Source: Mayamaea pseudoterrestris
Taxonomy: Eukaryota
Reading direction: 5' to 3'
Assembly: GCA_027923505.1 (NCBI GenBank)
Contig: BROI01000005.1
Coordinates: 186,001-250,000 of the forward strand
Length of the DNA: 64,000 bases
The number at the start of each line of letters is the position of its first letter. The stretch's first letter is position 1. The translations under genes and the position numbers were made by a program. Below the pieces are notes generated by a model that was given only the letters and a program-made list of their open reading frames with translations, was not told the origin of the DNA and made no database searches. Below are positions 5,555 through 56,559 of this stretch, one piece after another.

Positions 5555-6670
5555 TCAATAGAATTCAACAATCAAATTCCCTCGAGACTTTCCATCCTTA
5601 CTCAACACTCCCTGCTCTGGAATGACGAGTCGCTTGGACGACAGCGTCGACTTGCGAATCTTGCGGTGCATGGTCGTTCCATCGAGCAGTGGCATGTTTA
5701 TGGAGATCAGTCCGCCCGTTGCCTTGCCTTTCAGATCCGCGGCACTGATTGGATACTCGTATCTCACATCATTCGTGCCCTGCTGTCTTGAATAGAATGG
5801 ATCTTGCTCCTGCACGACAAAGACAATCTTGGGGAAATTTTTGGTTGCCGCGAAGGTAATGCGCGTGCCAGACTTGTAGCTTGGCTTGAGTTCAATGCTA
5901 TAAATGCGCGACTGCGATCCATGCTTCACCTTTAGTTTCTTGGTGACGCCTTGATGCAAGTCGCGCAACGTGACGGCAACGGTCCGCGTGTAGGATTGTG
6001 CAGGTGCAGATGCCTGCTGCTGTTGGCGTGGCGGCGTGCTCCCACCGGATGGTTGCTGCTGCTGCGAAAAGGCTTGCGAAAAGGCTGACGCGTCAAGACC
6101 CTGCCCCATCATCATTTGACGCAACATTTCCTGCAAGTCAAAGTCCATTCCTGGTGGCGCCTGCTGTTGCTGCCGTCCTTGCTGCGCGCCTCCTTGCTGG
6201 AACGAAAAGGCGTTTCCAAACGACTGAAAGAAATTGGCAGACGCTCCATTGGTAGTGCCGGATTGATATTGATGACCACCATTGCTACTACTGAATCCTT
6301 GAAATGGATTACCATTATAGTTATTTCCAGTCGTTCCGTAGGCGTCATACATTTTGCGCTGCTCCGGATCCCCCAGCACTTGGTAGGCTTCCGAAACTTG
6401 CTTGAAGGTTTCCTCATCGCCGCCCTTGTCGGGATGATGCTTCAAACACAATTTTCGATAGGCCTTTGTAATTTCCTGGTCGGATGCATTCTTGGAAACG
6501 CCAAGGGTGGTGTAGGGTGACGCGGCTGGTTTGTTGGAAGCGAGTGTTGTGTGGCTGCATAGAGTGACAAGTAGTAGCAGCAGCAGCAGCGTCCGTGTTA
6601 TTTTATGATAAAGTAGCTTTGATTGACTCCGACAACGACGAAAGCGAGTAGCATTATGAAACAGTTGCAT
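5555..6670 (-). CDS. DnaJ/Hsp40 class B co-chaperone with N-terminal hydrophobic signal/anchor
   Basis: J-domain PYTTLGV...[14 protein letters not shown], a G/F/Q-rich linker and a DnaJ C-terminal domain ending GNLIVEF; hydrophobic stretch [11 protein letters not shown] upstream. Start codon uncertain. Confidence 0.88.
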
Positions 6671-21718: not shown

Positions 21719-22033
21719 TCAATTGCTTGGATGCTTTAGATTTTCAGAAAGTAAATCAGGAACGGTACGCTACCGCTAGCGGCACGTTCAGCGTGATTGT
21801 TTAGAAGGTGGCGGTGATAATAACGCTTTCGCATCTCCCGATGGTGCGCCCATGATGCGGCGGCGTCAACAATGTTCTTTTCATTCCCGCTAAGATTTTC
21901 TAGTCGTACCGGTTTCGCTTGAGTGCCGACGAGAGCCATCGGTTTTGCGAAACGATCACTCGCTCCCCCTTTTTGTTCTTTCACAAGTTCACCAAGTAGT
22001 GTAAGGGGCCTTAACTTTACAACGTGCATCACC

Positions 22034-23824
22034 ATGACGGACCGGAAGGACGTAGAATACGACCCCGATGGTACCTTACTTGTAGCCCGCGGTAATGTCT
22101 CCATCAACGACAAGGAGGAGGATGAACAAGCCACCGAACAGCTCGCCAAGCTGCAGCAACAAGTCGAAAACGACCCAGCACTTCAATCCTTTCTATACAG
22201 CACGACGCAGCCCCAAGCTGCACAGGACCGCTTGAAAATGATGCAAATGGATGATCAGCGTCCAAATCTCTCCAATCTCTCCGATAAGCAGCGACGCGCC
22301 TTTTTGAAGCGATCCTTGTCCAAGAATACTGTCGTGGCCGCCAAACTGAAGCGACACGACACGAAACGTTTACAGGCTGCCATTGCAGCACGAGATGCAA
22401 GTCTAGTCTTTGCAGATTCCGTAGGTTACCTTCAAGCAGAGAATGACATGGAACGAACTACTGCCATGAAGCAGTCGCAGCTGAAGAAACACTTGGATCC
22501 CGAAACGGCGCAGCATATATACGATCTCAAGCTAGCCTGTCCACATGGACTTCAGTATGATCGCTCCGGTCGGTATTCACTGTTATACAGCACGGCGAGT
22601 ACGTCACGCGGCCATGTTGCCGTAATGGACAATTCCTTTCGCACGCTGCAAACCGAGTTTGTCGTGCAGGAGCGCATTCGCGATGCCTGCTTTTTGAACA
22701 ACTCCAAGCTCTTTGCTCTCGCGCAGCAGCAGCATGTATACATTTACGATGATACTGGAGCGGAGATTCACCGGCTGGCCTCTCACATTGATCCGCTGCA
22801 ACTGGAATACTTGCCGCATCATTGGTTACTGGCGAGTTTGGGGCGCGCCGGGCATTTGAAGTATACCGACACATCGACGGGTCAGCTTGTTTCGTCGCAC
22901 AGCGTTGGGGCGCATACGAATGTACTGCGACAGAATCCAAGTAATGCAGTCTTGGTCGCAGGACATGGCAATGGCAGCGTAAGTCTCTGGAGTCCATCGT
23001 CGAGCACGTATTTGGCCAAGGTCATGTGCCACAAGGGTTCGCCCGTCCTGTCATGCGCCATTGACGCAGCGGGACATTCGCTCGTGACGGGCGGCGCCGA
23101 TAAGCAAGTATCGGTGTGGGACTTGCGCATGATGAAGCTCCGACATTCCTACTACACGGCAGCTGGTGTTCCATGTAGTTTGGACATCTCGCAACGAAAC
23201 ATGCTAGCTATTGGTCACGCAGGTCATGTGACAATCTGGGGCGCCGACGCGTTGGAATCAAAGGTTCGGGATCCGTATCTGCACCACTTGGTACCCGGTG
23301 GTAGTCCAATCGAGACGGTCCGGTTCCGTCCCTTTGAAGATGTTTGCGGTGTAGGCCATGCCAATGGAATAACCTCCATGGTTGTCCCTGGTGCAGGTGA
23401 ACCAACATTTGACACGAACGAATATCATTTGAACCCGATGCAGAGCGTAAAGCAGCGACAGGAGCAAGAGGTCCGATCGTTAATGGATAAGCTAAGGCCC
23501 GATATGATTGGACTCGATCCGGATCAAGTCGGTGCCATGGAGGAGAGTGACCCGCATCGACGATTGGAACGGATTCAGCAGCTACAAGAGGAGGCAAATG
23601 CCAAGCCTCAAGCGAAGAAAAAGCAAAAGTCGAAGAAGAGAGGGCGCAGCAAGATTCAGACACAGCTGAGACGAAAGCAGGCCAATATAGTCGACCAGAA
23701 TGTCATGCAACTTCGACAGGCGCGAGAGAAGGAGAAGAGCGATGCAGAGGCGACAAGAAATGGTATCGAGCCCGAGCCGAGTCGAAAGGAAAGTGCTCCA
23801 GCGGCACTGAGACGCTTTTTCTGA
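22034..23824 (+). CDS. UTP7: U3 snoRNA-associated WD40 protein UTP7/WDR46 (BING4CT domain)
   Basis: LEYLPHHWLLAS, RQNPSNAVLVAGHGNGSVSLWSP, RFRPFEDVCGVGH, VVPGAGEPTFD, QEVRSLMDKLRPDMI and C-terminal ALRRF. Confidence 0.92.
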   Translation: MTDRKDVEYDPDGTLLVARGNVSINDKEEDEQATEQLAKLQQQVENDPALQSFLYSTTQPQAAQDRLKMMQMDDQRPNLSNLSDKQRRAFLKRSLSKNTVVAAKLKRHDTKRLQAAIAARDASLVFADSVGYLQAENDMERTTAMKQSQLKKHLDPETAQHIYDLKLACPHGLQYDRSGRYSLLYSTASTSRGHVAVMDNSFRTLQTEFVVQERIRDACFLNNSKLFALAQQQHVYIYDDTGAEIHRLASHIDPLQLEYLPHHWLLASLGRAGHLKYTDTSTGQLVSSHSVGAHTNVLRQNPSNAVLVAGHGNGSVSLWSPSSSTYLAKVMCHKGSPVLSCAIDAAGHSLVTGGADKQVSVWDLRMMKLRHSYYTAAGVPCSLDISQRNMLAIGHAGHVTIWGADALESKVRDPYLHHLVPGGSPIETVRFRPFEDVCGVGHANGITSMVVPGAGEPTFDTNEYHLNPMQSVKQRQEQEVRSLMDKLRPDMIGLDPDQVGAMEESDPHRRLERIQQLQEEANAKPQAKKKQKSKKRGRSKIQTQLRRKQANIVDQNVMQLRQAREKEKSDAEATRNGIEPEPSRKESAPAALRRFF

Positions 23825-24105: not shown

Positions 24106-25818
24106 CTACTTGTACGGCCTTTCCTCATCGTGATTATCTAAAGGAGCCGCCGGCACAAGGGTCCAACAAGGCCCGCACTTGAGCCCCGCCTTGTTGTCGT
24201 TGATGCGTGTCGTAATCATGGCAGCTATGACGCTGCTTACCGTTCCCGCAATAAAGCATGCTGCAAGTCCCGAGACGGCATTGTTGCCCGAATAATCATT
24301 GTAATCGTCTCCAATGTACGTGTAAAGAAAGCCACTCCCAAGAGTTCCAAGCAGTCTACCGAGTGCATTGCTCATGTAGTATAACCCAACAGAAACTGCA
24401 ATCTTTTCCTTGCTGGCGTAATTGACGACGAGGAAGGAGTGAATGGACGAATTGACGGCAAAGATGACAGCGAAAGTAACGATGATCACGGTCATCCAAG
24501 CAATCATTTCAATTTCGTTTCCATTCACAAAACTTGGAGACCATAGCAACACTATGAATCCGACAAGGGTGGGAATGCAGTTGATGATTCCCCAAAACAC
24601 TTCCGTCATTTTGTTGGGCGGCGATTGACGCAACGGTCCCGTGGCAAACTGCGGCGTCCAAGACTGGACCTGACCGTACAATATGATATAGCCGCCAAGG
24701 AATGCGCCTACAACGACGCGCGACAAACCAAGACCACCGCAGCCGCCTCCAACGTTAATGTTTTGGCAGATCTCGTCAAAGCAAACGGCACCAGTCGATC
24801 CGCAGTCTCCATCCACTTGACATGCCAATTCACCCAGCCCCTCGCAAGGCGGACTGCGCAGAAAGAATGGCAGCGGCACTTCGAACCAAAAGTCGCGCGA
24901 CGCGAACAGAAAGAGTCGAGCAACACTCAGCAGCGTCAAGTTGGTGTTTTCAAACGTAAACACTTCCTTCCACGACGCATTCTTCGTCTTTGCAGTTCCA
25001 AGTCCCTTGTGGAGTCCCAGAATCGCCCACGGCATGGCGAGCAGTATCAGTCCCATCATACTCGCCAAGGCAGCTTCGTAGGAGACTTGAAGCAGCGCGC
25101 TACCCAAAAAGTAACCAACGCCCTTGAGACTATTCTTCCATCCCGTCAGCAGCGAAACTAGCTTGAAGAGTTTCGTCTCCTTTTCATCCGGCGTCACCAG
25201 CTTTGTCACCGTCTTGCCTCCCAGTTTCGTCAAGTCCTTGGCAATACCGGCAAACAATTGAGACATTGTCACGTAGATAATGGCCGTCCGTTGACTCCAA
25301 CTTTCGTTCCATCCGAACAAGAGTCCATAGCTAAAGAGCTGCAGCACCAATCCGCTTATCAACGTATACTTGATGCCCCAGCGCGCTCCGAGTATGCCAG
25401 CGGCAAGGTTCGTCACGACTCCGGCAAGTTCGTAGAGTGTAAACATGAATGCCACCTGCAGCGCCGAAAACGACTTGTTGTAGGCATGCAGCAAGACAAT
25501 CATGCGAATGGCGCCATCCGTAATCGTAAACAAGAGGTAGCTGGAGGATATAATGACAAATGGACGAAGAGCTTGTGACCTGGCAGCTTGGAAGAATGAC
25601 TCTTTTGGTGCCGAAGAAACTGCCGCGGTCGAGTCGGACGCGTCGGCGTGGAACGTTTCGAGCTTGCCGTTAACGTCAGCAGGAGCAGCTTCCATGCCAA
25701 GCCGTTCGTCGCGACGCAAGGAATCCATATATTCCTCCTTGACTTCTTCACACTCCTCTCCATGAGTTTCAATGGTCGTCATGACTTGTTGCAACTCGTT
25801 GTTGTTGATGTTGCTCAT
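24106..25818 (-). CDS. arsJ: ArsJ-like organoarsenical efflux MFS transporter
   Basis: YLLFTITDGAIRMIVLLH, FTLYELAGVVTNLAAGILGARWG, GIAKDLTKLGGKT, LTGWKNSLKGVGYFLG, ARLFLFASRDFWFEVPLPFFL, FAVNSSIHSFL and VGLYYMSNALGRLLGT match the bacterial ArsJ signature blocks as I recall them. Confidence 0.88.
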   Translation of the reverse strand: MSNINNNELQQVMTTIETHGEECEEVKEEYMDSLRRDERLGMEAAPADVNGKLETFHADASDSTAAVSSAPKESFFQAARSQALRPFVIISSSYLLFTITDGAIRMIVLLHAYNKSFSALQVAFMFTLYELAGVVTNLAAGILGARWGIKYTLISGLVLQLFSYGLLFGWNESWSQRTAIIYVTMSQLFAGIAKDLTKLGGKTVTKLVTPDEKETKLFKLVSLLTGWKNSLKGVGYFLGSALLQVSYEAALASMMGLILLAMPWAILGLHKGLGTAKTKNASWKEVFTFENTNLTLLSVARLFLFASRDFWFEVPLPFFLRSPPCEGLGELACQVDGDCGSTGAVCFDEICQNINVGGGCGGLGLSRVVVGAFLGGYIILYGQVQSWTPQFATGPLRQSPPNKMTEVFWGIINCIPTLVGFIVLLWSPSFVNGNEIEMIAWMTVIIVTFAVIFAVNSSIHSFLVVNYASKEKIAVSVGLYYMSNALGRLLGTLGSGFLYTYIGDDYNDYSGNNAVSGLAACFIAGTVSSVIAAMITTRINDNKAGLKCGPCWTLVPAAPLDNHDEERPYK

Positions 25819-26425
25819 GTCGCTGCAATTGTGTGTATCGTGCTATTGCTCTAAGTACAAGATTCGTCCGGAACGTTTGCGTCGCGCTGACGCGAGCAAG
25901 AGAATCCGCAGGTATGGAATCGAATGATGGTAATGACGCGCACGGCATTTTGAGGGAGGTTTCAGTGAAGTTACGTCGTCTGCCATGGTGGTGGAGGCGC
26001 AAACCTTTGTCTCGAGGTGGACCGGCGCATGAATCTGGAACGTCATGGCACGAATCTCAAATGCAAGTGCAATGTCGCACCGAGAACCGTTTGAATTGTA
26101 CTCTTCGATACACAGTGCTTGCCCGGCTTTTATGCGCGCCGGTCCTGCAATGCTCTGCTTCACAATTTCTTCCCTCAAACTTCCACCATGGGACGACAGC
26201 CACGCACGCTGCCAGAGGCAGCATCAACAATGTGATTCTTTTAGTATCTCAGGAGCCTTCTCAAGCCACACATTATTTTTGCAGACGAGGGGCTCAGGTA
26301 CGTGTGCGAAAGAGAGTGGCTCTGAAATTTGGTCATTCGCTCACACTGCACCTCACATCTTACATCTTTTTCCTTCACAAAGCTCAAACATCTTATCTCT
26401 AGTAAACCAGAAGTCATTTACCATC
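25819..26425. promoter_or_regulatory. Shared divergent promoter region of arsJ and the ArsJ-associated GAPDH, with YGAATCT elements
   Basis: 607 bp between the two ATGs; AAGATTCG 25859-25866 (reverse complement CGAATCTT), TGAATCTG 26030-26037 and CGAATCTC 26051-26058. Confidence 0.55.
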
Positions 26426-27565
26426 ATGCCAGTTAAATGTGCCGTCAATGGGTTCGGCCGCATTGGCCGCTTGACGTTTCGATACGTTTGGGACGATCCG
26501 GAGCTTGAGATTGTCCACGTCAACGATTTATGCAGCTGCGAAAGTGCCGCCTACCTGTTAAAGTACGACTCGGTGCATGGAACGTGGGACAAGGAAGTGG
26601 AGCAAGCCGAAAATAATGAAGATGCCTTTACTGTGGACGGCAAGTTGGTTACCTTTAGTCAATGCAAGGACTTTACCCAAGTCGACTACAAGGCCATGGG
26701 AGTTGAGCTTGTCATGGAATGCACTGGCAAGTTTCTCAAGGTTCAAGAACTCAACCAGTACTTTGACTGCGGCGTCAAGCAAGTCGTTGTGAGTGCTCCC
26801 GTCAAGGAAGACGGCGCGCTCAACATTGTGCTTGGTTGTAACGACCACAAGTTCACGACGGAGCACAAGCTCATCACCAACGCTTCCTGCACCACCAATT
26901 GCTTGGCTCCAGTCGTCAAGGTGATACACGAAACGTTTGGAATTGTCAAGGGATGCATCACGACCATTCATGATGTGACTGGAACGCAGTGCTTGGTGGA
27001 CATGCCCAATACCAAAAAGAGTGATTTGCGGCGGGCCCGCAGCGGCATGGTCAATCTTTGCCCGACTAGTACGGGAAGTGCCACTGCCATTGTCGAAATT
27101 TATCCCGAGCTCCGCGGCAAACTGAATGGACTAGCCGTTCGCGTTCCGTTGTTGAACGCAAGCTTGACCGACTGCGTGTTTGTGGTGAACCAAGACGTTA
27201 CCGTCGAGCAGGTGAATGAGGCACTCCAAAGGGCCAGCGAGTCGGGACCTCTCAAAGGCATTCTAGGTTACGAAGTCAAGCCGCTCGTATCGACGGACTA
27301 CACCAATGATACTCGCAGCGGCATTGTGGATGCCTTGTCGACGCAGGTGATTGACGGAAACATGGTCAAAATCTATGTGTACGTGGTGGTTGATTACTGG
27401 ATGGTGTGTTATGTAATACTTTGGTAGTAAACCCACTCATTTTTGTCTTTCATTGGTTGCAGCTGGTATGACAATGAAGCTGGGTATTCCAAACGCATGG
27501 CAGAGCTTTGCAACATTGCTGCTGCCAAGAACATTTCCGAGAAGGAACCATCGTTCAATGAGTAA
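26426..27565 (+). CDS. ArsJ-associated (Gap3-type) glyceraldehyde-3-phosphate dehydrogenase (intron 27379-27462)
   Basis: NGFGRIGR and catalytic ASCTTNCLAP. Subfamily-diagnostic TTIHDVTGTQ...DLRRARS...PTSTGSATAI and LNASLTDCVF replace the glycolytic TTVHA..TQ/STGAAKAV. Splicing restores KIYVWYDNE. Confidence 0.9.
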
Positions 27566-27667: not shown

Positions 27668-29863
27668 CTAATCGGAAAGATCTTCATGGATTCGTCCCTC
27701 GCTGACAATGTCCCGCAAACGCTGCGCAGCCGCTTCCTCGCTCATGTTGCCGATCTTTTTGAAAACCTCCAACAATTCTCGTTGCACAGCAGCGCCAAAG
27801 CTTCTTGCGCCCCCACAAACAAAAAGGTGGCCACCTTCTACAGTCAGCGAGTGATAAACTAGCTCCTGTCCATACTTCCGCATCGAGTCTGTAACTTGCT
27901 CGCACTTGCCACTCGAGCATCCCGTTGTGTACGTTATAAATGACTTGTTCACCGCTCCTAGTGCCTTGGCTTGATCCACCAAGTCTTGATAGACAGCATC
28001 GGCTGGGTTGCGAAAGCCAAGAAAGAGCAAGTGGTGCTTGTGCGTTCCAAACATGTTTGCCGCTTTGTTTCCACTCAATGTTGCGAACGCAATCCGCTCC
28101 TCCAAAAAGCCGCGAATCGGAGCCACGCCGCAGCCACCGGCAATCAAAATGACAGGAGTCGCTGGATCGTCTGGGAGGCGAAAGGTGGGGTTGGACTTGA
28201 TAGCGCCAACGAGATGGCTGGTGCCGCCAGTAAGGTTGGACATGTAGGACGTGCAGGTTCCGCGTCGGAGGGATCCTTGATTCGTTACATACTTGACTGG
28301 TCGGTACGTCAAGTAGAGCTCGTCCGGATGCAGCAAGGGTGTCGTGGCAATCGAGTAATATCGTCCCTGCATGGGTGGAAGGTTGTACAGCCAATCTTCC
28401 AAGGCAAGGTTCAATCCCTTTGTCGATGACATGGATAGCACCAGCTCCAACGCAGTCTTTCGAGGAATGGCAACCTCATTCTTGTAGTCAATGTCGGTTC
28501 TATCCAAAATTCGTTTGCAAAAGGACGGCGACGGAACAGCGCCAAGGTCGACGCAGTGACTCAGAGTTTCATACACTGAAATCTTGGTCGGATGCGGATA
28601 TCGCTTGTCGTTCGCATACACAATGACAGCGTGCGGATCAACATCAAGCACTTGGCAGAGAGCGTCCACCAAGAAGTCGGGATTGCGAGGAAAGATTTCA
28701 AAGTGATCGCCAGTCCCATAGGTCATGTTTGCTCCCAGCTCGATGCGAAGCTCGTGGAGCCCGTTGGATGCAGGATCCGAGTTGAGGGAATCATTGGCTT
28801 GCACCCGCAGCTCCTTGCAACCTTTTGGATAAAGTTCTGGTGCAACCTTCATAAGGTTCGTGCGTACGTAGGAAGTCAAGGGAGCTTGCAGCTGCAGTGG
28901 ATGTTTGGCCGACACTCGACGACGGCCATTTGACGACTTGGCTCCTGGGCAAAGGACTGTTTTCATTGCAGTCTCTTGTTGAGTAGCATTTGCCTCACTT
29001 TCACGTACACCCGCTGAAGCAACGATGCTAGGAGCTTGATCATGCGTATCGAGTGGCTCCTTGTCGATTGCAGTGGCACTGTTGTTACCATGCTTTAGCA
29101 AATTCAAAATTTGAGCCTGCCACTGATCAAAGTCGTCTTCGATGCAGTCGGCATCATTTCCCAAAGCCAGTGGCAAGACTCCAGATTCTCCCAATGCATG
29201 ATCCACAGTCTTGGCCACGGCATTGTAGTGGTTCGGATGGGCCGCCTGGTTGCCGAGTCCAAAGATGCAGTAGTGAAAGTTGCTGCTGCTGCTGTTGGTT
29301 TTCGTTGCATCGTCACTAGTTAGGTAACGAAACAAATCTCTTCCGTTATCGGGCGGCTCACCGACACCAGTCGTGGAACAAATCAAAATTGTCAGCGTCT
29401 CTGGGTCGCTGCCTTGCAGCAGCAAGTCTTGCGGCGCCACGGACGCCCATGGCGCCACATCTACCTGGAAATCGCCAAACGCATCCTGAATCGCGTCGCA
29501 TAGCTGCATGGAAAACATTTGGGCGGTTCCTCCCTGACTCGCAAAGCGAATGCGAATCTTGGTGAATGATGTACTACAAGATGGTATGGCGGCACTGACT
29601 GTTGACATGAAGCGAAAGTTGGAGAATGGTGCACATATGCGGAACGATGACTGAGCGAATGACTTGCACGTTGACAGAGTCCCTTCAATCGCACCAGTAG
29701 CCTTTGACAAGGAACGAAGCAAGACTTGAGGTCCTGCAGAAAGGCATGGGCGCATCATGGAGCAAGACGACAGGATTGACATTGCTCGTTGAGTCGAGGA
29801 AGCGACTCGACGTGTAGCTCCTCGAGTGACGCCGAGCGATGATGCAGGTCGAAGAATCATCAT
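27668..29863 (-). CDS. Diflavin (FMN/FAD) NAD(P)H oxidoreductase, CPR/NOS-reductase-like, with putative mitochondrial presequence
   Basis: FMN loop FASQGGTAQ, STTGVGEPPDNG and IFGLGN; FAD motif RYYSIAT and GTCTSYM; NAD(P) motif IAGGCGVAPIRGF and LFVCG. The N-terminus is Arg/Ser-rich and acid-poor. Confidence 0.85.
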   Translation of the reverse strand: MMILRPASSLGVTRGATRRVASSTQRAMSILSSCSMMRPCLSAGPQVLLRSLSKATGAIEGTLSTCKSFAQSSFRICAPFSNFRFMSTVSAAIPSCSTSFTKIRIRFASQGGTAQMFSMQLCDAIQDAFGDFQVDVAPWASVAPQDLLLQGSDPETLTILICSTTGVGEPPDNGRDLFRYLTSDDATKTNSSSSNFHYCIFGLGNQAAHPNHYNAVAKTVDHALGESGVLPLALGNDADCIEDDFDQWQAQILNLLKHGNNSATAIDKEPLDTHDQAPSIVASAGVRESEANATQQETAMKTVLCPGAKSSNGRRRVSAKHPLQLQAPLTSYVRTNLMKVAPELYPKGCKELRVQANDSLNSDPASNGLHELRIELGANMTYGTGDHFEIFPRNPDFLVDALCQVLDVDPHAVIVYANDKRYPHPTKISVYETLSHCVDLGAVPSPSFCKRILDRTDIDYKNEVAIPRKTALELVLSMSSTKGLNLALEDWLYNLPPMQGRYYSIATTPLLHPDELYLTYRPVKYVTNQGSLRRGTCTSYMSNLTGGTSHLVGAIKSNPTFRLPDDPATPVILIAGGCGVAPIRGFLEERIAFATLSGNKAANMFGTHKHHLLFLGFRNPADAVYQDLVDQAKALGAVNKSFITYTTGCSSGKCEQVTDSMRKYGQELVYHSLTVEGGHLFVCGGARSFGAAVQRELLEVFKKIGNMSEEAAAQRLRDIVSEGRIHEDLSD

Positions 29864-30217
29864 GATTAACTTTTTTAAAGCAAATTGCTGCTTGATATCA
29901 GAGTAGAGTCTTTTATGACTACTCCATGTCTTTGACAGTAAAAAGGTGCCGGTAGTTGTGTTATGAACGAGAAGAGCTTCGCGTTCAAAATGGATCGCGA
30001 TCTTCATCGTCCTGCTAAATCTGTGAACGAAAGCGAAGTGTCGTTACGGTACTCCGATGTCCGTGCGGTACACATTATTTAAATATCTAGGTCACAACGG
30101 TAATCAACGGAGCCGGCTGTCACACGACGACGATGGAAGACGCACCAACACCATTTGCGATGATGATGGCAATACCATGGCAGGCTACAAAACCAATAGT
30201 GATTCTGCAATAACAGC

Positions 30218-38100: not shown

Positions 38101-40144
38101 TTAGCTTTCCACCGTCACAAACCCTCCGCCGCCACTGCTACCACCCCCACTTCCTTCTCGATGAAGTTGAAAGGCCCAGTCAAGTTGACGCATTATAGGT
38201 AAAAGCATCTTTCGCATTGTTTCTCCGGTATCTGTCTGTGGAAGCTGATTCCGCATTTGTTCCATTTCGCGGTAGAAGCTTTCCATGCCGCGAACAATGC
38301 GCCCAATTTTCTCAGTGGTAGTAATATGCTGGTCACTGATCTTTCGCAAGCCGTAAAAGTGACGAAGAAGTTCCGACGATCGTCCAAAGTACAGTTGCAG
38401 ATTGTTTCGGAACTCCTCGGGTAGCTTCTTGACAGCTTCCAACGAGGCTTCCTCGGTTTTTGAATCGTTGACCATTTTCTTAGTCAAGGCAGCCAAAAGT
38501 CCTCGACCCAATGAAGCTGGAGGGAAGCAGGATGCAGGCAAAACATCTTCCAAGTCAGTTGATTTTGCCACCGTTCCTATTTGCGCCGCCACAGAGTTGG
38601 CAAATGCGATATGTAGCCGAACAGCTTCTTGTTCCGCTTCCGGCGACTGATCAGCCGTTTCCTTTCCTCTTAGCCCAGAATAGTAAGCTTCTACATTGCT
38701 GAGCGTTAATTGTTCATATTCCTGGTGCACGCCAAGTCCAGCCGCATGATCTGCATCTCCTTCGCTCGCCGACGCAAAGGCGACGAGATTTCGCATCTCC
38801 TTATCCAAGCCGCCACCAGCGTTTGCGTCTTGGTCACCATGCAGTACTTCGTTGACGCTCTTCCTTGCCACCTGCTGCAGGTCCGAGCCCGCCACTGCGT
38901 CGTCTGGATGTAAAACCATGGCCCAATGACGATTGTATTTTTGAATGACGCGAGCGCCCTTGCCGTCGTCGGCCTGATTGGGTGGAAAATTGTCCTTTGG
39001 TTCAAGCAAATGCCCTCGTTCCGTTTCAAACGTGCTCGCCAAGTCAAACTGTCCACAAGCCAGCCGCCGACCCCACGCGCGGCGATTCGTATCTCCAGCA
39101 GCATTTGCATCCGCCGCTTGCTGCTTTTTAATCTTTTGGTCGTAGCGTGAAAACAAGTCATCCGTACCGACTGCTGCCGCCCGCGCTTCCTGCTCCTCCA
39201 CGGAAGGTCCTGCCGTCTTTTTCGGTCGCTTACTTTGATTACTTGCCGGATCCGCATGATTCCTAGCCGCCTCGCCCATTCGTCCGCGATCGCGATGAAA
39301 GTATTCGCTTTCCAAATACTTGCGCCAAAACTGCTCATCCGACAACTCGAGCGGTACCTTTTCTTCATATGCCTGCAGTAGAGATGTAAGTGAAAGTGCA
39401 TAAGTAACCACAAAGAAAGTATCTACCCAAATATTTCAGTCGCTAGCCAGTACATACCTTATGCACTGCTGGATAGAGTATAAAAATTTGTCGCATTTCC
39501 TCCACGCCCAACACAATGCGGCCCGAGCTTGGCAAGTGCGACGCAAAGAAGGACGACGTTCCAGACTTGCGCACGCCCGAAATCTTGGCATACTCCTCCT
39601 CGAGCAATGACTGATGCGTTTCCCAAAAGTCGTTTTCGGCCAGTGTTTGCGTTTCGCAAACTAAATGGGAGTGTTGCTTGCGCAGGGCGGGATTGGCGGC
39701 CAAGAGCGCCGAGCGTGTCACGGCTAATACCGTAGGATCAAGATCATCAAACGCTGTAGCATTACTAATCTTGTCGTTTCTGTAAACGTCTGTCAAAGTT
39801 CGCTTCTTAGTGGCGGAGCCATTTATGTTGTCGCTGCTTCGTGAGCGCAGGAGTCGGTCGGTTATTTCGTTTCGAACGCCCTCCAAATCATTTCGATTCG
39901 CCAATTGAAAGGTCAGATTAGTCGAATTCTGCAGTATTATTTTCAATAGCGGTTTCGGATAGGTAGCTGGACTGACTTGATGCTTTGACACGGTGCTCCA
40001 TGGAATGACAGCAAGAGACGACGAAGACGCTCGAGTCTGAAAGGTCAGCTGCTCGGAGGTGAGCGTCAAGGCGCCTTGCTGCTTTTTGTGCAATACATTT
40101 TCGTACGTCAATTTATTCTGATCGACATTTATAGATTCGGCCAT
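38101..40144 (-). CDS. GTF2H1: TFIIH subunit p62/TFB1 (PH-like and BSD domains; intron 39373-39457)
   Basis: N-terminal PH-like domain (HQVSPATYPKPLLKI); LLAANPALRKQHSHLV..ENDFW; QIFILYPAVHK|AYEEKVP..LSDEQFWRKY; ELLRHF. Confidence 0.8.
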
Positions 40145-40675: not shown

Positions 40676-41864
40676 CTAGTAGAAAGATTCGTCTTCATAC
40701 AAGACATTCGTCACATTGCCCTTGTTGACACCGGTAGCACTAATGGTGTTTGTCAAGGCGCCTTTGGAGTGCGCGTAACCAAGCGCCATGACGAGCATAA
40801 TGCCAACCACAGCCACTTTCGAAAAGAGATTCGAAAAGATTCGTTTTGGTAATGGTTCTTCCACGTCCGCTCCATTGACAGGGAAAGCGTTAGCATCGTG
40901 TTCGGATTCCTCCTTGCCTGTGAAGAGCAAAAATTGTGTGATCAAGGCATACATTGTCAACAGCGCTGCTATAAGAAATGGGCTCAATGTATGTTTGTTT
41001 ACCTGCATGCTCCTTGTCGTCATTGTCATGTTGGTGCTTGTCAAGCGCTGCTTTGCCATCCGATTCAGTGTCGTCAAAAGCATGGTTTGCATTGCTTAAA
41101 GTGTTTGGTGATGACTGCCGCACATTGCCAAACGCAGGCGCTTTTCGCAGCGGTCGCGGCGCATCAATGTGACCCTTTGTTGCATTGATCAACGATTTGG
41201 CGCTGCCAAAAGACGTGTGCGGAGCAGCTAGCAGGTCTAAGGGCAGCCCGTGCGTGACAGCTTGCTTGTCGTTTGTTGCTTCGCTTGTCGTGAGGGCTAG
41301 CGGTGGACGCGCAATGCCAGCAGCAGCTGGCTCGTGAGCATGATGAACGGTTGATGCAGCTGCATTGCTCGAGCTCGTTGCAGGCATTTGTATAGAGGTT
41401 GTCCTGAATAAGGTGATTCCATCCTCCACTTGCACCTTGCGCTTTTTGGCTTCTCCGCTGTCGCCATTACTGACAACTTTGGTCATGTATCCATCGTCTT
41501 TCATAGTTTCTCTATTTCTGTCGTCCAAATCACCGTTTGACGTGCTGCAAGAGCTACCGGTAGCGTCATCGTCATTCCTTTTGTTTGGAGATGTTGCTTC
41601 GTCATGGGTTCGCTTTCGTGAATCATCATCACGCATATTCACGTCAAGGCCATCTGCGACGATGCATCGTTGGTCAATGCCATTGTCCTTTAACGTCGGA
41701 ACAGTTTCCGTAGTCGGGCCAAGCTTGCTTTGGCAAGTGATTGCTTCGTCTGCAAACGCTTCCGAGCGATTGCTGCAATGATCATGGTGCTGCGTGAGCT
41801 TGCCTTGCTGCTCGCCTTTCGCATTGCAGTCAGCTCTTTCGCAGCACCATGATTCGGAGGACAT
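40676..41864 (-). CDS. Hypothetical disordered protein with C-terminal TM segment (probable intron near 40918-41001)
   Basis: Long low-complexity ORF; GT..AG near KEHA|GKEESE joins it to KVAVVGIMLVMALGYA. Confidence 0.5.
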
Positions 41865-42076
41865 GCTAGTTGATGATTGTACCGATAGAATGAGATTGGT
41901 AGCGTGTTCCTTGTCAACAACTACAAGATGAGAGACAAGGTGCATGGACGTTTTGCCTCGTTTGCTTTCCTCGAAGCGATCCGAAGAGCTAATGAAAATG
42001 TCGCAAAGGTTCTAAATGAGTCGTAGCGGTACTTTCAATTTGTTTTTCGAGATCCGTTCAAAACTCCGTCGCCACC

Positions 42077-44612: not shown

Positions 44613-45487
44613 TTACATCATACTGTCTCCCGCGTAGGCTGTCGCATTGAAAAGGATACACAAAGTGAGTTCCGTCTTCTTGTAGACAAATCGTCATGCA
44701 TAACACAACGTTTCAACTCACGCGCTGCCCGACCACTCTTCCAGTACGCTTGCAGGTTGGGGCGCTTTTTAAAGTGTTCGTAAAACTCCTTTAATGCAGG
44801 AACGTTGGCAGCATCCCAAGCATGCTCGTAAAAGTCGGTGTTGAACTGATGCACCGATGCATCCAACACATGAAACAAGCAAAAGTCGGCATACGTGACT
44901 CCACTTCCACCGGCAACAGGATTACTTAGACCAGCCTTTTTGACAATCTTGTCAAAGTGCGCCAAGTACTTGAGCATGCGATCCTTGGAAAATTCCTTGG
45001 ACGCTTCGTCGGCCTCTTCCTTTTGATCCTTGTAGCTGGCGTGATTCTGGACTGGATGAAAGGTGCTTCGGCCTTCGCCAATGTAGTCTAGCGCATTCAA
45101 TGTAATGGATGTAGCTTGGGCGCGCTCCTTGGCCGACTTGGGAGCGTAACCAAGGGCTTCGCCCAAGTACTCCATGCAGGCGCCAACTTGATTCACAAAG
45201 ACTTGTTCGTCATCGCCATTGCTTGGTCGATGCCAAATGGCTGGCGGATACAAGACGGGAAATGGCTGACTACTAATATCGTCGCTCACGCTAATCAACG
45301 CGGGCGATCCGCGAAACATATCCATGGATCCTTGTGGCCCGTACAAGCCATCGCCGGAGTCTAGATAGGCAACGCCAGCATCCTCCAGCATGAGGCGGAG
45401 GAATTCGCCGCGGCCTTTGAGGGTTCCGGGTGAATGATAGAGGACAGTCCACTCGGGAACTGCGTTTGATGAGGTGGAAGATGTCAT
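44613..45487 (-). CDS. Glutathione S-transferase (intron 44639-44721)
   Basis: KGRGEFLRLMLEDAGVAY, PPAI, NQVGACMEYLG and VTYADFCLFHVLD; spliced tail RPNLQAYWKSGRAAP|YAGDSMM*. Confidence 0.88.
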
Positions 45488-46172
45488 GATGGTATGTATG
45501 AATGAAAGATTGGAAGCAAAGACAGAATAGCGACGTTTGCCATGTGAATGTGACGGAAAGATCTTGGTCGGGTGCATGGATCGCGATGTTCGTCGACGTT
45601 CCAAATTCTGTGTCGCACTGGTGACTTAACGTAAGCACTCGTACCGGTAGTCGTCGCTTCGTCAAAAGCTAGCGCATCGTGCAATGTAATGTGCTGTAGT
45701 CTTCTAATGCTTGACTAGCCTTGCCGTCTACCAGTAGTGACGCTTTTCCTCATTCATATCTTGTAGTTACTGACGAAGCAAAACCTACTCTAAGGACTTT
45801 GTTGAAGCATAGCTAGCGAAAAGAGCTATATCTAGCAGTCGCCGGAATGTATGGGCGGATGAAAAAGTCTACGGGTAGCTCAGGCTGTGTGAGCCATGAT
45901 TTGGTATTTGTCGGACAGATACGAGTAAGTCGAATGTTGACTGTACATATACTGGAACAGGTTAGTATGAAGATCTTTCGTGGCATTGAAGCGAGTGTGT
46001 AAAGGCGCACATGATAGTTAAGGTACGGCTAATCGCAATTGAATCTTCTGGTAGGCGCGACTACATAGGTACTTGTTGTTTCATGCTCTGCCGACGGCAC
46101 GCAATCTAGATACAAACAATTGCATTTGCGTATACTGATAGTAGTAAATGAAAGATTCAACGCTACAGCAAT

Positions 46173-47414: not shown

Positions 47415-48254
47415 ATGAAATGTCGTCCATACGAGTCAGTCCTTTGGGGATTGCTGCTTCTGCTGCCAACATGTTGCTCGACGTTCACACCTTCCATTAT
47501 GTCGTCGTCGACGCATCGGATGAACAGGAAGAATTTAAACCATCGGCACTATCAGCCAGTTGCATTACAACGCAAGCATATCAAGCTTTTTAGTTCCGCA
47601 GACTTTGACTTTTCGTCGTCCTGGGCCTGGGAGCAGTACTATGCCAGGAATGAAAGCGTCGTGACGGATTGGCACGGCTCGGTGCCGCTTCAAGACATTG
47701 CCTTATTGGTGAGTGAACAACTTGATGCACAGCAGATGCAGCAGCAAGAAGAAGGCAAAGAAGAAGATGCAGAGAAAGACACAGAGACTTTTAATCCGAC
47801 ATGCCTCATTATCGGATGCGGCACCTCCGACCTACCGACCGTTCTACGTGCATTCTTGCCAAAACTGCGCATGATTCTGCTCGACTCGTCGGCAACCTGC
47901 ATGATCATGTTACGCGAACGATATCAACATGATTCTCTCGTCACATGCATTTGCGAGGATGCCACGCGACTCGACTCCATCGCAGACGACTCGATTGACT
48001 TGATCATTGACAAGGGTTTCTTGGACGCCTTGCTTTGTAGCGAAGGATGGAACGGGTTGGTAGAACGAACAATGGCGGCGGCGACGCGAGTCTTGAAGCG
48101 CGGCAGCGGGAAATATGTTTGGATTGGATACAAGCTTCCGCAGTCGACGCTTGATTTCATGGCGGAAACGACAGCTTTGGATATGCATTGGGAGAATGAT
48201 TGCGATGGCTCAAACGACAATGTGGCAATTCGAATTGGTGTTAGAAAACGTTGA
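47415..48254 (+). CDS. Class I SAM-dependent methyltransferase (EEF1AKMT4/METTL13-like) with N-terminal signal
   Basis: WEQYY..DWH, LIIGCGTS, LLDSS, CEDAT, DLIIDKGFLDALLC and RVLK. Confidence 0.82.
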   Translation: MKCRPYESVLWGLLLLLPTCCSTFTPSIMSSSTHRMNRKNLNHRHYQPVALQRKHIKLFSSADFDFSSSWAWEQYYARNESVVTDWHGSVPLQDIALLVSEQLDAQQMQQQEEGKEEDAEKDTETFNPTCLIIGCGTSDLPTVLRAFLPKLRMILLDSSATCMIMLRERYQHDSLVTCICEDATRLDSIADDSIDLIIDKGFLDALLCSEGWNGLVERTMAAATRVLKRGSGKYVWIGYKLPQSTLDFMAETTALDMHWENDCDGSNDNVAIRIGVRKR

Positions 48255-48963: not shown

Positions 48964-51900
48964 TTATTCTAGAAAGTCGTCCAAATCAGCTTCGTCCGAT
49001 CCTTCCTCCATGTTGGCGAATGTCAAAAAGTGTTGTGGACGGTGACACTCGGCGTAGAATGGCTCTGGCACGTCCATCTTTAAGCTGTAATCCATTGTCG
49101 CGTTGTGTTTCACGCCCTGGAAATTGTAGTTCCAGCCCAAGCCACTCTCCGGAACCATAAAGAACCCTTTAAAGCGATCCGACAACAGCATCTGCACCTT
49201 TTCAAAACAGTAGGTCGAATAGTCATCCGCGTTGGCGACGCCTCCAGGCACATTGCGGCTCTTCTTGCCCCAATCCAAACCGGCGTCCGTAACGCGATAC
49301 GCCGTCAACGAACACGATCCCTGCGTGAACGCTGTTGTAATGATAATTTCGTCCTTGCCATTCCAAGCCTTGGGATTATCCTGCATTATGGAAGCGTGGG
49401 CAACCACGTCGGGCGCCGGAAGGATCTGGACGCCGTTTTGAATAATCTCATTCGGCTGCGTGTGAATCCAGCCCAGTGGCTGCAAATCCTTCAGCATGTC
49501 CGATTCGGGAAATCGTTTCGGTACTGTAACACTTTGATGATTGCCGACTTGCGGTACCAAAACAATACATCTCACTTCGCGGACTTGATCATTGTCCGGC
49601 GGCGTCACACCGAACAAATATCCTGCAATCTGAGTTCGCAAATCTGCGCACATGATGAATTTCGAGAGAATGTTCTTCGGCAGTACATACGTCAAACCAT
49701 CCTCCGAAATGTCTTCCGACGAGACGTAAATGTGCTTGGTGCGCAGATACAGATTCGTTGCGCTTATTGCACGAACTCGCCAGTCAGTCTTGCTTTGAAA
49801 GGTTGCTGACTCGTACTGCGTTGTCGTAGTCACCACAATTTGTTCGCCGTGCACATTGGTCGTTTTGGTAGTTGTAGCCGTCATTTGCGATTGATCACGA
49901 GCCTGAGCTTCAATTTCAGCCACTTGCTGGCGTTGCACTGATGGAGGCGCAATCTCCATTCCAAGAATAATATCGCGAATCTCACTCTGCGTCAGCGACG
50001 ACACGTTCACGTTGTTCTTCTTTCCGTAGTCACCAAGAATCAAGTCCTTGAGCGCTACCTCCACCTTGATCCACTGTGCGTCCGTGAGAGTCGGCCAAAC
50101 ATGATGGGGCTCTGTGATAACGCTCTTATCCGGTCGCAAAATCTGTTTCACTTTGTCAGCGTTGACGTGCAAGCCGCGCAGAATGAGAATCAGACGTGAA
50201 AATGCAGTGTAAGACGATATGCTCTTCAGCCAATCGTCGTATATGTTAAACAAGACCATCTGTGGCTCCGTCGCCCGAAGGATAAGATCGCCAAGCTTCT
50301 CTACTTTCAAAGCCGCCTGGAAAGGAAGCTGTAGCTCGGAGCCCTTCAACACAATATTCGGAAAGTCAAGACAGTGCACTTCCAACGGATCAAGCAATCC
50401 CTTGCGCGTCACAATAATCTGCTTCGGTTGTTCCTCAATCGGCAATGAGCGAATCAGCGCAGCGACTTCTTCGGCTGTCTTCCACTTTGCAAGCTGCGAC
50501 AAACGCTTCTGGCCGGCCCAGACACTCGTGTGGATAATCTTGAGGAAGAGCTGACCTGTCCTTGGGTTGAAAATGAAAATGGCACCGTTGATCGGTTTCG
50601 TAACCAAATTTCCTTCAAAAGTCTTGTGAATTGTAACGCGGTAGACATTCGTATCGTCGACAAACCAGATAACCTGATTACTGAATAATTCTCCATAATT
50701 CTGCGAGCTCAAGTAAGGCTCCGTTGGCTCACTGCTGTAGAGCTGCAGCGCTTTTCGGATCCGCTCGCGTAGAACGTACAAGGCAGGGTTCGCCTTCATG
50801 ATCTTTGCCATTGCTTGCTGCAGGAGAGGCTTGCCGCCAGGGATGTAGTTACCGAACCCGCTATACAGTGAATACGCCAGGTCGACTGCGAGAAGAATAC
50901 CAGTAGGCGAAGGATAGATACTCATGTTGTCCGTCGTGTAGTCAAGAAACTTGGCGCGACCATAGCGTTCGATGTCGTGACTGTCGAAGTCTCCCCATCG
51001 TAATTGGACATCAATCCAGTATTTATTCGTCGTGGTTCCATCAAAATCATCTTTCGTATCGTGCAAAAGTGATGGCTTGGTGACCTGCCACTTGTATGCG
51101 GCGAATAGTACCAAGTCCGCGCAGCTACTGTTCATTTTGTATGACTTTCGCGGATGAATTGTTTCCTTCTGCACAGATTCAATCTCAAGCGCGTCAAGCT
51201 CCTGGTCAAAAACTTGAACAATGTCCATGACAAGTGATTCGTGTATCTTCTGCCACAGATGGGCGCGGAAAATTTGAATCAAAGATATTTTAAGAGTGGG
51301 AATCTTTCCGTGCATGAATATTCCGGTCAAATCTAATTGGACTTGGAATCCAACGTATACGTTGGCTCGGTTAATGGTTGGCGACCACCACAGCGTGAAT
51401 CGACGGTTCGGGATCTGCGTCAATCCAGAACGTTGGGCGTTGGTCAGCTTTTTGAACTTCATGCTCTCTTCAAATCCACTGTACGACGAAAAACAATCAG
51501 TGTGAGCGAAACAAACAAAACAAGTTTATAATGGCGGTCCACTGCTGCAAAAGACTTACGATGCCTTTTCCCAAAAGAGACCCTCCCAAGTAGGAAAATA
51601 GGTGCCTTTAAACAAACTATGTTCGAGAATGCCTTCAACACCACCCAGAGCTTGAATCATATCCGTTCGATAAGCGTTCAAATTCCACAGCTTTCCATCA
51701 TGTCGCTGATGAGTCCACCAAAAAGGATTCACGCGAAGAATGTGGAACTTCTTCATCTCCTCGCGGCATCGCCAGCCGCGGTCATACGCCAGCGTATGAC
51801 GGTCCTTCGAAAATAAAGTGTTTATCCGAGGAATACCACGATCCCAAGAGTCTTCCAAATCTTCTAAAGTCAAGCGACGGTTTTGTGCGTTTGCCTCTTG

Positions 51901-54900: not shown

Positions 54901-56559
54901 ATGAGCGATCAACGGTATATCAATCACGCGACGCGTGCGTCCCGACCGCTGATCATATGGCGCCGGCGCAAAGTAAAGGTGAATGCCAGCATTTGTATTT
55001 TCCGTCGACAACGGGGCATCCTCCAAGATTGGACGCAGAGACTGCGACGCGACAACTTCCTCGTCCGGTTCCCAGTCGTCAAAGTCGTGCTGGACTGCCC
55101 AGACATTGTCCATGTCATCTTCCGTTTCACCAACCAGCGGCAAAAAGTGTTCATCGTTGAATTCGTCCGGTTCAAATGAATAGGTCTTGGTCTCAACGCG
55201 AACAATTGGGTTCAGCTGCAATGGATACGTCGAGTATGCCACATTGCCATCATCCACCATTTCATCTTCCTCTCCATTTCCCACGTAGCTTGATGGCACG
55301 TAGTGATAGGCCGCCAATCGCACCTTGCGCGGCCGCGAGTTGAACACGTGCGGAAAGGCAATTTTGTATTCGGTGCGAATAGGCTGACGAATCACGACGC
55401 GATGAATGTCGTTGAATTCGTCCCAATCTTGGTCATGCTCCTGGTCGTCACGAAACAGTGGTTCAAACTTTGGTCCGCCAGGAATGGCAGCGTTCAAAGC
55501 CTTGGCTGTGAGAAAGTGTTCCTTTTCAAACAAGTACTTGTGGTTGTTATCGGGCATCAGTGTCAACATTGGTTCCGCAAGATTGTATAGCTGGGACATA
55601 ATGGGCGTACTAAGTCGCCACTCCTTGTAGGTTGGCCCATTCACGTAAACGTGACGACAAAGTGGCTCCTCCCGCGACACGCGAATGTCACTGAGCGGCT
55701 CATTCTCAAACAGCCATCCATCCAGCAATGGATATTCGTTCGGATCCAATTCCATTTTCACAGCTTCACCCGGCTCGACCGTCAACAAATGATCCGAGTA
55801 GTCCAGCGGCGGCTCCTCATCATCAAAGGCTGGAAATCGCATTCGTTTAAAGTGCAGTCGATCACGCTTCTCTCTTCGCATGAGCGTCCAAGCCATGCCC
55901 CACTGCGCCCGATAGATGGGTTCAATCACCTTTGGCGTATGATCGACAAAACTAATGGCACCAGTGATATGAAACAAGACTGGCACCTCCTTGTATGATT
56001 CCCATGGCATTGGAATATTCTCCAGCAGCTTGTAGAGTGCGTGCGGAATATATTTCAAGGCTCCCAAGTAGAGGCGCTTTTCCGACTGGTAGCGCTTGCT
56101 CGACATGTCGCCGTGGTCCTGCAAGATTTTGCGCAAAAAGTCGGCCGGGAGCTGCTCCTTTTGGGGAGCGGAAAAAGTGGTCATGCGTTTGGACGAGTAC
56201 TTTTTGGATTGCAGCTTGGCCCAGCGCTTGGTCTTTTCCTCGAGCGACAATGGTGGCGGTCCGGATGATGGCGGAGGAGGAGGTACTTGGGAGGGCGGCG
56301 GTCGAGGCAAATGATGCATTCCTGGCGGCGGCGGAAGACTGGCATCTCCGTGCTGGTGCATACTATTTCCGGGAATATAGGGATGCAATCCCGCAGGAGG
56401 CGCCATTCCGGGAGGTGGAGGTGGAAACATTCCTGGCGGAGGTGGCGGCGGCGGCAAACCATATCCGCCTTGCTGCTGCTGCATACCAGGCGGCGGAAGC
56501 ATGCCGGGAGGCGGTCCCATTCCCGGCGGTAACGGTACTCCATTGTTATTGTTTGACAT
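48964..56559 (-). CDS. PRPF8: Pre-mRNA-processing splicing factor 8 (introns 54023-54103 and 51479-51559)
   Basis: Unmistakable PRP8 sequence throughout ([75 protein letters not shown]); Pro-rich N-terminus. Confidence 0.98.

Follow-up and report, generated by a model that had tools for sequence, protein, structure and literature searches.

A probably vertically inherited, eukaryote-type ArsJ–GAPDH gene pair with a proposed role in arsenate detoxification in the nuclear genome of a diatom

The closest described relatives of the locus analysed here are the gapdh–arsJ pairs of bacterial ars operons, known from Pseudomonas aeruginosa (Chen et al. 2016, as described in PMC7826186), and the ArsJ–GAPDH3–PGK3/PGK4 neighbourhood of green algae (Foflonker and Blaby-Haas 2020; PMC7826186). 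The latter report proposes that the ArsJ and GAPDH of green algae were acquired as a unit, and describes the arsJ (ArsJ-like) and pgk3 mutants of Chlamydomonas reinhardtii as arsenate-sensitive. In Cyanidiales red algae, arsJ is reported to be monophyletic with the genes of Viridiplantae and other eukaryotes and to stand alone, accompanied by neither GAPDH nor PGK (PMC9812998). Pteris vittata has a GAPC1–OCT4 arsenate pathway (as described in PMC7826186) that follows the same logic, in which arsenylation by a GAPDH is followed by removal of its product through a transporter. Here we analyse a 64,000-nucleotide stretch of the genome of the diatom Mayamaea pseudoterrestris (GenBank assembly GCA_027923505.1, contig BROI01000005.1, positions 186,001 to 250,000; hereafter the window), in which a gene for an ArsJ-like permease and a gene for a GAPDH lie head to head.

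Like the bacterial pair, the diatom pair consists of physically linked members of the same two families, and the diatom GAPDH shares the residues that are diagnostic of its bacterial counterpart. The bacterial genes, however, stand in tandem on one strand, gapdh then arsJ, and are sometimes fused, whereas the diatom genes are divergent, with introns and a shared region of 607 bp; the diatom permease also differs from bacterial ArsJ by an extra 80-residue N-terminal tail and a Cys-rich loop. The Cyanidiales resemble the diatom in having a eukaryotic ArsJ, solitary there but paired with GAPDH here, while Pteris vittata employs convergent, unrelated proteins (a plant GapC and an OCT4-family carrier) where the diatom uses true ArsJ-type proteins. 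As in the diatom, the green-algal cluster places a nuclear ArsJ-like permease gene close to a gene for a bacterial-type GAPDH, and the proteins fall in the same eukaryotic clades in both of our trees. The green-algal cluster has a PGK partner, however, and the diatom pair has no PGK-like gene beside it: a scan of 34 open reading frames (ORFs) of the window for protein domains (30 of the 44 of at least 180 aa, plus four around the gene pair) turned up no PGK, and tblastn with E. coli Pgk gave no match to the window or to the diatom-type loci. Among the ArsJ loci that we collected from metagenomes (labelled L), Pgk matched only L071, L072 and L076 (a 47–48% identity group), where the PGK-like genes (L071:3628-4935, L072:222-1481 and L076:8425-9732) lie head to head with the ArsJ-like gene, without a GAPDH. 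This arrangement fits the Mamiellophyceae type of PMC7826186.

The Cys-rich loop, and a cluster of GAATCT sites in the region between the two genes, are diatom features that form no part of the green-algal description as available from PMC7826186, whose accessible text makes no mention of diatoms, Phaeodactylum or stramenopiles. Within the searchable literature (subscription journals lie outside this scope) we found no description of an ArsJ–GAPDH pair in diatoms, only the green- and red-algal papers. The ArsJ–GAPDH module is already published for green algae, as a preliminary description of the window had rightly cautioned, and what is new here is the absence of a PGK partner, the Cys-rich loop and the cluster of motifs of the phosphate-starvation regulator (PSR) type.

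Our conclusion is that the window probably carries a vertically inherited, eukaryote-type ArsJ–GAPDH pair that serves arsenate detoxification, a function that we infer from the families to which the two proteins belong, the conservation of their linkage, the natural fusions and the mutants of Chlamydomonas. In the mechanism that we propose, which is transferred from the bacterial and green-algal systems, arsenate would enter the cell via phosphate transporters, and a cytosolic ArsJ-type GAPDH would put arsenate in the place of phosphate on glyceraldehyde 3-phosphate to give 1-arseno-3-phosphoglycerate. The ArsJ-like permease, with its 12 transmembrane (TM) helices, would then clear this unstable compound from the cytosol, either over the plasma membrane or into a compartment, and the compound would break down there to arsenate and 3-phosphoglycerate. 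Divergent transcription from a short shared region with YGAATCTY sites would allow both genes to be induced together when phosphate is scarce and arsenate uptake is rising. If the pair does work as it does in bacteria and Chlamydomonas, it would provide diatoms with a second arsenate route beside reduction and methylation, and one that needs no reductant.

Gene structures and family placement

The permease gene occupies positions 24106–25818 of the window on the minus strand, as an intronless ORF of 570 aa, and the GAPDH gene starts on the plus strand with the ATG at 26426. The start codons are head to head, 607 bp apart (25819–26425), and the coordinates given for this MFS/GAPDH pair in the preliminary description hold to the base. 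GAPDH exon 1 (26426–27378) encodes residues 1–317 and two bases of codon 318, and contains matches to Pfam Gp_dh_N and Gp_dh_C. It is followed on the same strand by an 84-nt, phase 2, GT-AG intron (27379–27462; GTACGT...TTGCAG) and by exon 2 (27463–27565), which reads from WYDNEAGYS to a TAA stop. Removal of this intron, which had been predicted to restore the frame, does so: the spliced translation is identical at every residue to the deposited 351-aa protein P0122 (MPSEU_000337800). The Mayamaea gene models were built with RNA-seq reads, according to the genome paper (PMC9724779). No run catalogued as RNA covers the gene pair. Contigs from three public runs of unspecified type, X1, X2 and X3, all cover the gene-pair region, and we made no use of their depths. 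An X2 contig terminates precisely at 27378, the last base of GAPDH exon 1.

A second GT-AG intron, of 85 nt (26298–26382, plus strand; GTACGT...AAAG), lies in the 5' leader of the GAPDH gene. Its basis is one X3 contig (depth 2.3), which joins 26295 to 26381, with the GT..AG boundaries reached by a cut at +2; X1 contigs read through both GAPDH introns unspliced. When the leader intron is spliced out, in-frame stops stay upstream, with no ATG on the stretch from these stops to Met-1, so that this is an intron of the 5' untranslated region rather than a hidden targeting exon. The Rossmann motif NGFGRIGR begins at residue 8 and the protein aligns with bacterial enzymes from residue 1, which leaves no presequence, and the window GAPDH is therefore most likely cytosolic. 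Up to the limit of the X3 contig (25968–26425), the leader measures approximately 373 nt when spliced and contains nine upstream ATGs; the contig ends near 25968–25980 in X1, X2 and X3 resemble assembly breaks, not a transcription start.

We placed the GAPDH in its family by profile scores, pairwise identities and phylogeny. On NF033735, the model for ArsJ-associated GAPDH, P0122 scores 476.8 bits, above the cut-off of 450 (441.3 bits without exon 2), and it scores lower on general GAPDH models (436.8 on NF006512, with a cut-off of 563, and 383 on TIGR01534). The P. tricornutum orthologue reaches 486.7 bits on NF033735. In five bacterial genomes with arsJ, the arsJ-linked GAPDH is the best match to the diatom protein in five of five, at 53–60% identity; the other 11 GAPDH paralogues of these genomes are 36–44% identical to it.

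We built an 87-row GAPDH tree (IQ-TREE quick search, LG+C20, with support from SH-aLRT only), in which the bacterial linked enzymes are represented by every second one (36 of 72), and stramenopile TPI-GAPDH, plant and bacterial paralogues serve as stand-ins for M. pseudoterrestris' own paralogues. An arsJ-type clade with a support of 99 gathers 66 of the 87 rows (98 in a 71-row tree). Its eukaryotic members are the window GAPDH, 12 other diatom orthologues, the Chlorella sorokiniana protein and 10 ArsJ-adjacent metagenome GAPDHs, and its bacterial rows are the 36 arsJ-linked GAPDHs together with six GAPDH–MFS fusion proteins. All 21 housekeeping references fall outside: plant cytosolic GapC, plastid-type GapA/B, three stramenopile TPI-GAPDH fusions, E. 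coli GapA, a dinoflagellate enolase-GAPDH and 11 bacterial paralogues. The preliminary expectation that the enzyme would stand apart from GapC and GapA, and with the arsJ-linked enzymes, is thus borne out. Within the clade the eukaryotes come together in a single group of 24 rows (support 95), next to a bacterial group of 41 rows (87).

When the linked GAPDHs (23 from eukaryotes and 36 from bacterial arsJ loci) are aligned with 12 housekeeping enzymes, the linked groups show HD.T.TQ, DLRRAR, TGSAtAI and LLNASLTD, and the paralogues have HayTadQ, DwRrgR, TGAAkAV and TpnVSvvD at the same places. The motifs IHDVT, DLRRARS, TGSATAI and LNASLTD, by which the preliminary description had assigned the protein to the subfamily, are all present in the translation and are typical of that subfamily. 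Defining a position as diagnostic if it is common to at least 85% of both linked groups and found in at most one of the 12 paralogues, we obtained 14 such positions, and the window GAPDH matches the bacterial linked enzymes at 14 of 14. The catalytic motif SCTTNC is preserved, as is the His in TTIHD. We also considered Phaeodactylum 'GapC4' (mitochondrial according to PMC6477932) as a counterpart of the window GAPDH, but no mapping was obtained and the lead was dropped.

In the permease, 12 transmembrane helices follow an acidic, weakly conserved N-terminal tail (residues 1–80). The protein matches Pfam MFS_1, and its sole NCBIfam match is NF033734, the ArsJ model (339 bits, E 3.9e-101, profile positions 2–389 of 392). 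The HMM comparison by which the preliminary description proposed to check the pair therefore turns out well for the GAPDH (476.8 against 450) and in part for the permease, which has ArsJ as its only match but lies below the curated equivalog cut-off of 400, a threshold that was set for prokaryote annotation. A low score on this model is a general property of the eukaryotic homologues (342–410 bits): two other diatom permeases score 344 and 349.7, and the proteins of Edaphochlamys, Corallochytrium, a member of the Pedinophyceae and Ptychodera score 363.7, 342.8, 410.1 and 407, respectively, against 565–616 for five bacterial ArsJ. It is important to note that this shortfall counts against our interpretation, given that substrate specificity could have drifted. 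The window permease is 31–39% identical to bacterial ArsJ. Its AlphaFold model (pLDDT 73, pTM 0.74) has 12 long helices, and the 50 matches listed for it in the PDB are all MFS transporters, including NorA, SPNS2, FLVCR1, G6PT and GlpT, at 9–15% identity; no ArsJ structure was found among these 50. For parts of the permease gene (24409–25189), X1 holds two contig versions that are several bases apart, which look like diploid alleles.

The Cys-rich loop is an insert between TM7 and TM8, at residues 322–366 (24721–24855, minus strand), and contains six Cys, of which five are invariant and one nearly invariant across 24 diatom sequences. The insert spans 37–65 residues with 6–8 Cys in diatom/ochrophyte-type permeases and is confined to that clade, being found in none of the green-algal, Ptychodera, Corallochytrium or bacterial sequences. 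It is modelled with a small beta hairpin (pLDDT 78–88) and, by standard MFS topology, would lie on the non-cytosolic side.

The properties of the permease bear on another interpretation, namely that the pair serves carbon or phosphate metabolism, for example as a glycolytic step for phosphate starvation coupled to a carrier that exports or exchanges a phosphorylated three-carbon acid, arsenate being handled only incidentally. The sub-threshold ArsJ score and the lineage-specific Cys-rich loop would fit such a role, as would the presence of the organophosphate:phosphate exchangers GlpT and G6PT among the closest solved folds, at only 12–15% identity among generic MFS matches, and the GAATCT sites discussed below, which in their PSR reading suggest phosphate and not arsenic. 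Nevertheless, the GAPDH retains the 14 positions that separate arsJ-linked from housekeeping enzymes, glycolysis in diatoms is already served by the stramenopile-type TPI-GAPDH (GapC-type), which lies outside the arsJ-type clade, and C. reinhardtii mutants of the ArsJ-like gene, which belongs to the same eukaryotic family, are reported as arsenate-sensitive in PMC7826186. We therefore consider a purely metabolic role unlikely, and retain arsenate detoxification as the probable function of the pair.

Linkage and age of the pair

We then asked how far the two genes occur together elsewhere. A metagenome scan with a single ArsJ protein as query found no relative, and a scan with a diatom ArsJ alignment yielded 80 eukaryote-like loci. 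An ArsJ-type GAPDH is present in 13 of these 80, head to head with ArsJ in 11 (L026, L028, L029, L030, L035, L039, L045, L079 and L065, with L066 and L069), convergent in one (L053, where GAPDH lies about 3 kb downstream of ArsJ) and in tandem in one (L077, GAPDH then ArsJ on one strand with a 560-bp gap). L065, L066 and L069 share one ArsJ sequence, so the 11 head-to-head loci reduce to nine distinct ones, seven of them diatom. In both trees L026, L030, L035, L039, L045 and L079 stand among the diatoms, and L029 falls immediately outside. L053, L065 and L077 join the green-algal Chlorella sequence in the GAPDH tree; in the ArsJ tree they stay together, among the eukaryotes that are not diatoms. 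The head-to-head pair thus also occurs beyond diatoms, in L029 and L065. A close relative of the window diatom probably also has the pair, given that a 6,973-bp contig is recorded for both of its proteins, P0004 and P0123.

The genes flanking the pair in the window do not travel with it. The Utp7, diflavin reductase and BTB neighbours gave no tblastn match in any metagenome locus, and the AAA ATPase neighbour matched only L073 and L075, both without GAPDH. Since no window flanking gene is found in any linked locus, the conserved unit is the pair itself and not a larger block, and the occurrence of the same divergent pair in nine other distinct eukaryotic loci, without these flanking genes, means that the adjacency is not due to chance. 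Synteny, which had been suggested as a check on the pair, thus supports it in several diatom lineages and beyond.

Conservation of the linkage is far from complete, and this counts against our interpretation. Among 17 distinct informative loci of the diatom/ochrophyte type, that is, those in which the sequence extends 2 kb or more upstream of the ArsJ match, GAPDH is present in 6 and missing in 11 (L028 and L039 show GAPDH despite flanks shorter than 2 kb), and the Epithemia ArsJ and GAPDH are recorded on two differently sized contigs. The arrangement thus persists in several lineages of diatoms, is disrupted at no fewer than 11 of the diatom-type loci sampled and takes the form of one fused protein in some bacteria, and this patchiness offers a natural experiment on why functionally coupled eukaryotic genes stay adjacent.

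In bacterial arsJ loci, GAPDH lies directly upstream on the same strand in 72 of 80, and the flank upstream is missing from four of the remaining eight. A Filomicrobium metagenome-assembled genome (MAG) encodes GAPDH and MFS in one 805-aa frame (L089:2825-5239, plus strand), and six of 120 listed proteins longer than 615 aa (P0409, P0413, P0415, P0439, P0441 and P0463) contain both GAPDH and MFS_1. These six are scattered at three or more places among the bacteria in the GAPDH tree. Such single-frame proteins could be true fusions or could reflect lost stop codons in MAGs; a fusion would be expected if the unstable product must be passed on fast. Upstream of the pair in a Photobacterium locus (L102:1303-2100), one open frame matches both ArsC and ArsR models.

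In an 85-row ArsJ tree, a eukaryotic clade (support 100, 49 rows), to which the window permease belongs as had been anticipated, stands opposite the bacterial ArsJ (100, 36 rows). It contains the chlorophycean Edaphochlamys, a pedinophyte, Ptychodera and Corallochytrium, and within it the diatom proteins form a group of 27 rows (85) inside a group of 31 rows supported at 98. The named bacteria stay on one side in a 146-row FastTree with 46 more representatives. ArsJ-like proteins are also recorded in the hemichordate Ptychodera flava (P0249; 407 bits, which passes the cut-off) and in the holozoan Corallochytrium limacisporum (P0275).

These trees bear on the possibility that the pair results from a recent, diatom-specific horizontal transfer of a bacterial gapdh–arsJ operon, later inverted into a divergent pair. 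The tandem order in 72 of 80 bacterial loci would provide the required ancestor, and the nearest non-eukaryotic kin of both diatom proteins are relatives from bacterial ArsJ systems. Both proteins, however, belong to eukaryote-wide clades (with members from Chlorella, Edaphochlamys, Pedinophyceae, a hemichordate and Corallochytrium) that are nested in no sampled bacterial group. Orthologues at 62–89% identity span raphid, araphid and centric diatoms, and the head-to-head form exists outside diatoms (L029, L065). Moreover, the GAPDH intron sits at codon 318 in the window and at about codon 189 in L026, L039 and L045, and such lineage-specific positions point to long residence in eukaryotic genomes. 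Thus a recent transfer is very improbable. Our conclusion is that acquisition of the module predates diatoms, and that the pair is the diatom member of an old eukaryotic ArsJ–GAPDH module. The earlier proposal that the two genes were acquired jointly from a bacterial operon gains from the congruence of the two trees and from the gapdh–arsJ order of the bacterial loci (72 of 80), but the trees are unrooted, and in them the sampled bacteria stand as sister to the eukaryotic clades and do not enclose them, so neither donor nor direction of transfer can be read from these phylogenies.

The shared intergenic region and phosphate

The 607 bp between the start codons (25819–26425) comprise the shared divergent promoter region and the GAPDH leader; in eight further head-to-head loci, the gap between the ArsJ and GAPDH protein matches is 153–925 bp. 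We counted all 6-, 7- and 8-mers in nine head-to-head intergenic regions, some sequence of which codes for the ArsJ N-terminus, and compared the counts with the frequencies of the same words across all loci. Words containing AGATTC, the reverse complement of GAATCT, rank first among the 7- and 8-mers and second among the 6-mers. AGATTC occurs in eight of the nine regions (2.3 expected), AAGATTC in seven (0.85 expected) and AGATTCAT in five (0.25 expected). The nine regions hold 22 GAATCT sites in 4,666 bp, whereas the remainder of these loci predicts 2.9 and their non-ORF segments predict 2.4; the observed number was reached in none of 5,000 draws of random regions (maximum 17) and in none of 2,000 dinucleotide shuffles (maximum 10). 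A C or T precedes the site in 20 of 22 cases and follows it in 20 of 22, and many sites are paired, at a spacing of 9–35 bp.

The window itself has three sites in this region by the motif count: one on the minus strand at 25860–25865 (CGAATCTT), 42–47 bp upstream of the ArsJ start codon, and two on the plus strand, at 26031–26036 (TGAATCTG) and, 21 bp away, at 26052–26057 (CGAATCTC). Diatom-type loci without linked GAPDH also carry the motif, with at least one GAATCT within 800 bp upstream of the ArsJ match in 9 of 10, and 14 sites in total.

GAATCT is described as the binding site of PtPSR, the phosphate-starvation regulator of Phaeodactylum, an identification that we take by secondary citation from PMC13729311, which cites Kumar Sharma et al. 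(2020). A link to phosphate is biologically sensible, given that arsenate enters via phosphate transporters and that the ochrophyte Aureococcus is reported to have increased arsenic-detoxification transcripts at low phosphate (PMC4109616). In Prochlorococcus locus L139, pstS (5599–6612, minus strand) lies just beyond gapdh–arsJ. From the clustering of YGAATCTY in the shared region, taken together with the PtPSR report, we infer that both genes would be switched on together at low phosphate.

Several observations make us cautious about this regulatory interpretation. In the window alone the signal is weak, YGAATCTY occurring 19 times in the whole 64 kb against 13 expected, and three other window stretches hold at least three GAATCT per 607 bp, as the shared region does. 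L026, L030, L035 and L039 are close relatives, so the nine regions of the motif search cannot be treated as independent. If the X3 contig represents the transcript, two of the three sites in the window would fall within the leader of the GAPDH gene. Lastly, PMC4109616 reports no rise of metal-detoxification transcripts under low phosphate for T. pseudonana.

With these reservations, we put forward tentatively, and as somewhat less than an even chance, a more specific proposal: that the divergent ArsJ–GAPDH pair is a unit of the PSR regulon, that the YGAATCTY cluster has kept the genes head to head since before the diatom/ochrophyte split, that arsenate removal is induced pre-emptively along with phosphate uptake, and that the disulfide-rich loop, peculiar to ochrophytes, is an added functional module, for example for gating, partner binding or sorting. 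The GAATCT cluster provides a concrete regulatory hypothesis that would join arsenic detoxification to the PSR phosphate-starvation circuit, and the pair is genetically tractable in Phaeodactylum, which has the GAPDH orthologue. Diatoms account for a large share of aquatic primary production, often in phosphate-scarce water where arsenate competes for uptake; if the PSR reading is true, the response of diatoms to low phosphate would include arsenate detoxification, which would also be a factor in the arsenic cycle of waters poor in phosphate.

Elsewhere in the window, three YGAATCTY lie within 160 bp at 40684–40843, between the ORF for the TFIIH p62 N-terminus (39443–40144, minus strand) and an ORF at 40890–41945 (minus strand), and two more lie at 46040–46159, upstream of a GST_C_3 ORF (44618–45604, minus strand).

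Neighbouring genes and other features of the window

By the domain scan, the pair is flanked by a BING4/Utp7 gene (21923–23824) and by a gene for a diflavin reductase with flavodoxin, FAD and NAD domains (27668–30007). The ORFs scanned also encode Prp8, Sec1, CTNNBL, TFIIH p62 and two heat-shock factors (HSF). GC content is uniform throughout the window, at 0.47–0.53, and the ArsJ-like protein and the GAPDH of the pair are both recorded on one 1,239,468-bp contig.

These data allow us to consider whether the pair derives from bacterial contamination or an assembly chimera, as might be supposed from the best family matches of both proteins, which are to models built for prokaryote annotation. 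The preliminary description had argued against contamination from the eukaryotic character of the neighbours, and the Utp7, diflavin reductase, Prp8, Sec1, TFIIH p62, CTNNBL and HSF genes uphold that argument. Prp8, TFIIH, Utp7 and HSF genes lie on both sides of the pair at uniform GC, the contigs of three runs cover the region, both proteins are on the same long contig, and the GAPDH gene carries two GT-AG introns, one of which has been removed by splicing in a public contig. Given the two spliceosomal introns, the eukaryotic neighbours and the orthologues across diatoms, the probability of a contaminant or chimera is negligible, and we regard it as excluded.

Two further features of the window are recorded here. 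The Prp8 gene (48964–56565, minus strand) is represented by three consecutive ORFs, 48964–51462, 51556–54099 and 54100–56565. On this reading the gene has a minimum of one short intron, and either a frame change or an intron at 54099/54100. Two ORFs on the plus strand, 47415–48254 and 61272–62186, encode S-adenosylmethionine (SAM)-methyltransferase domains (Methyltransf_11/25).

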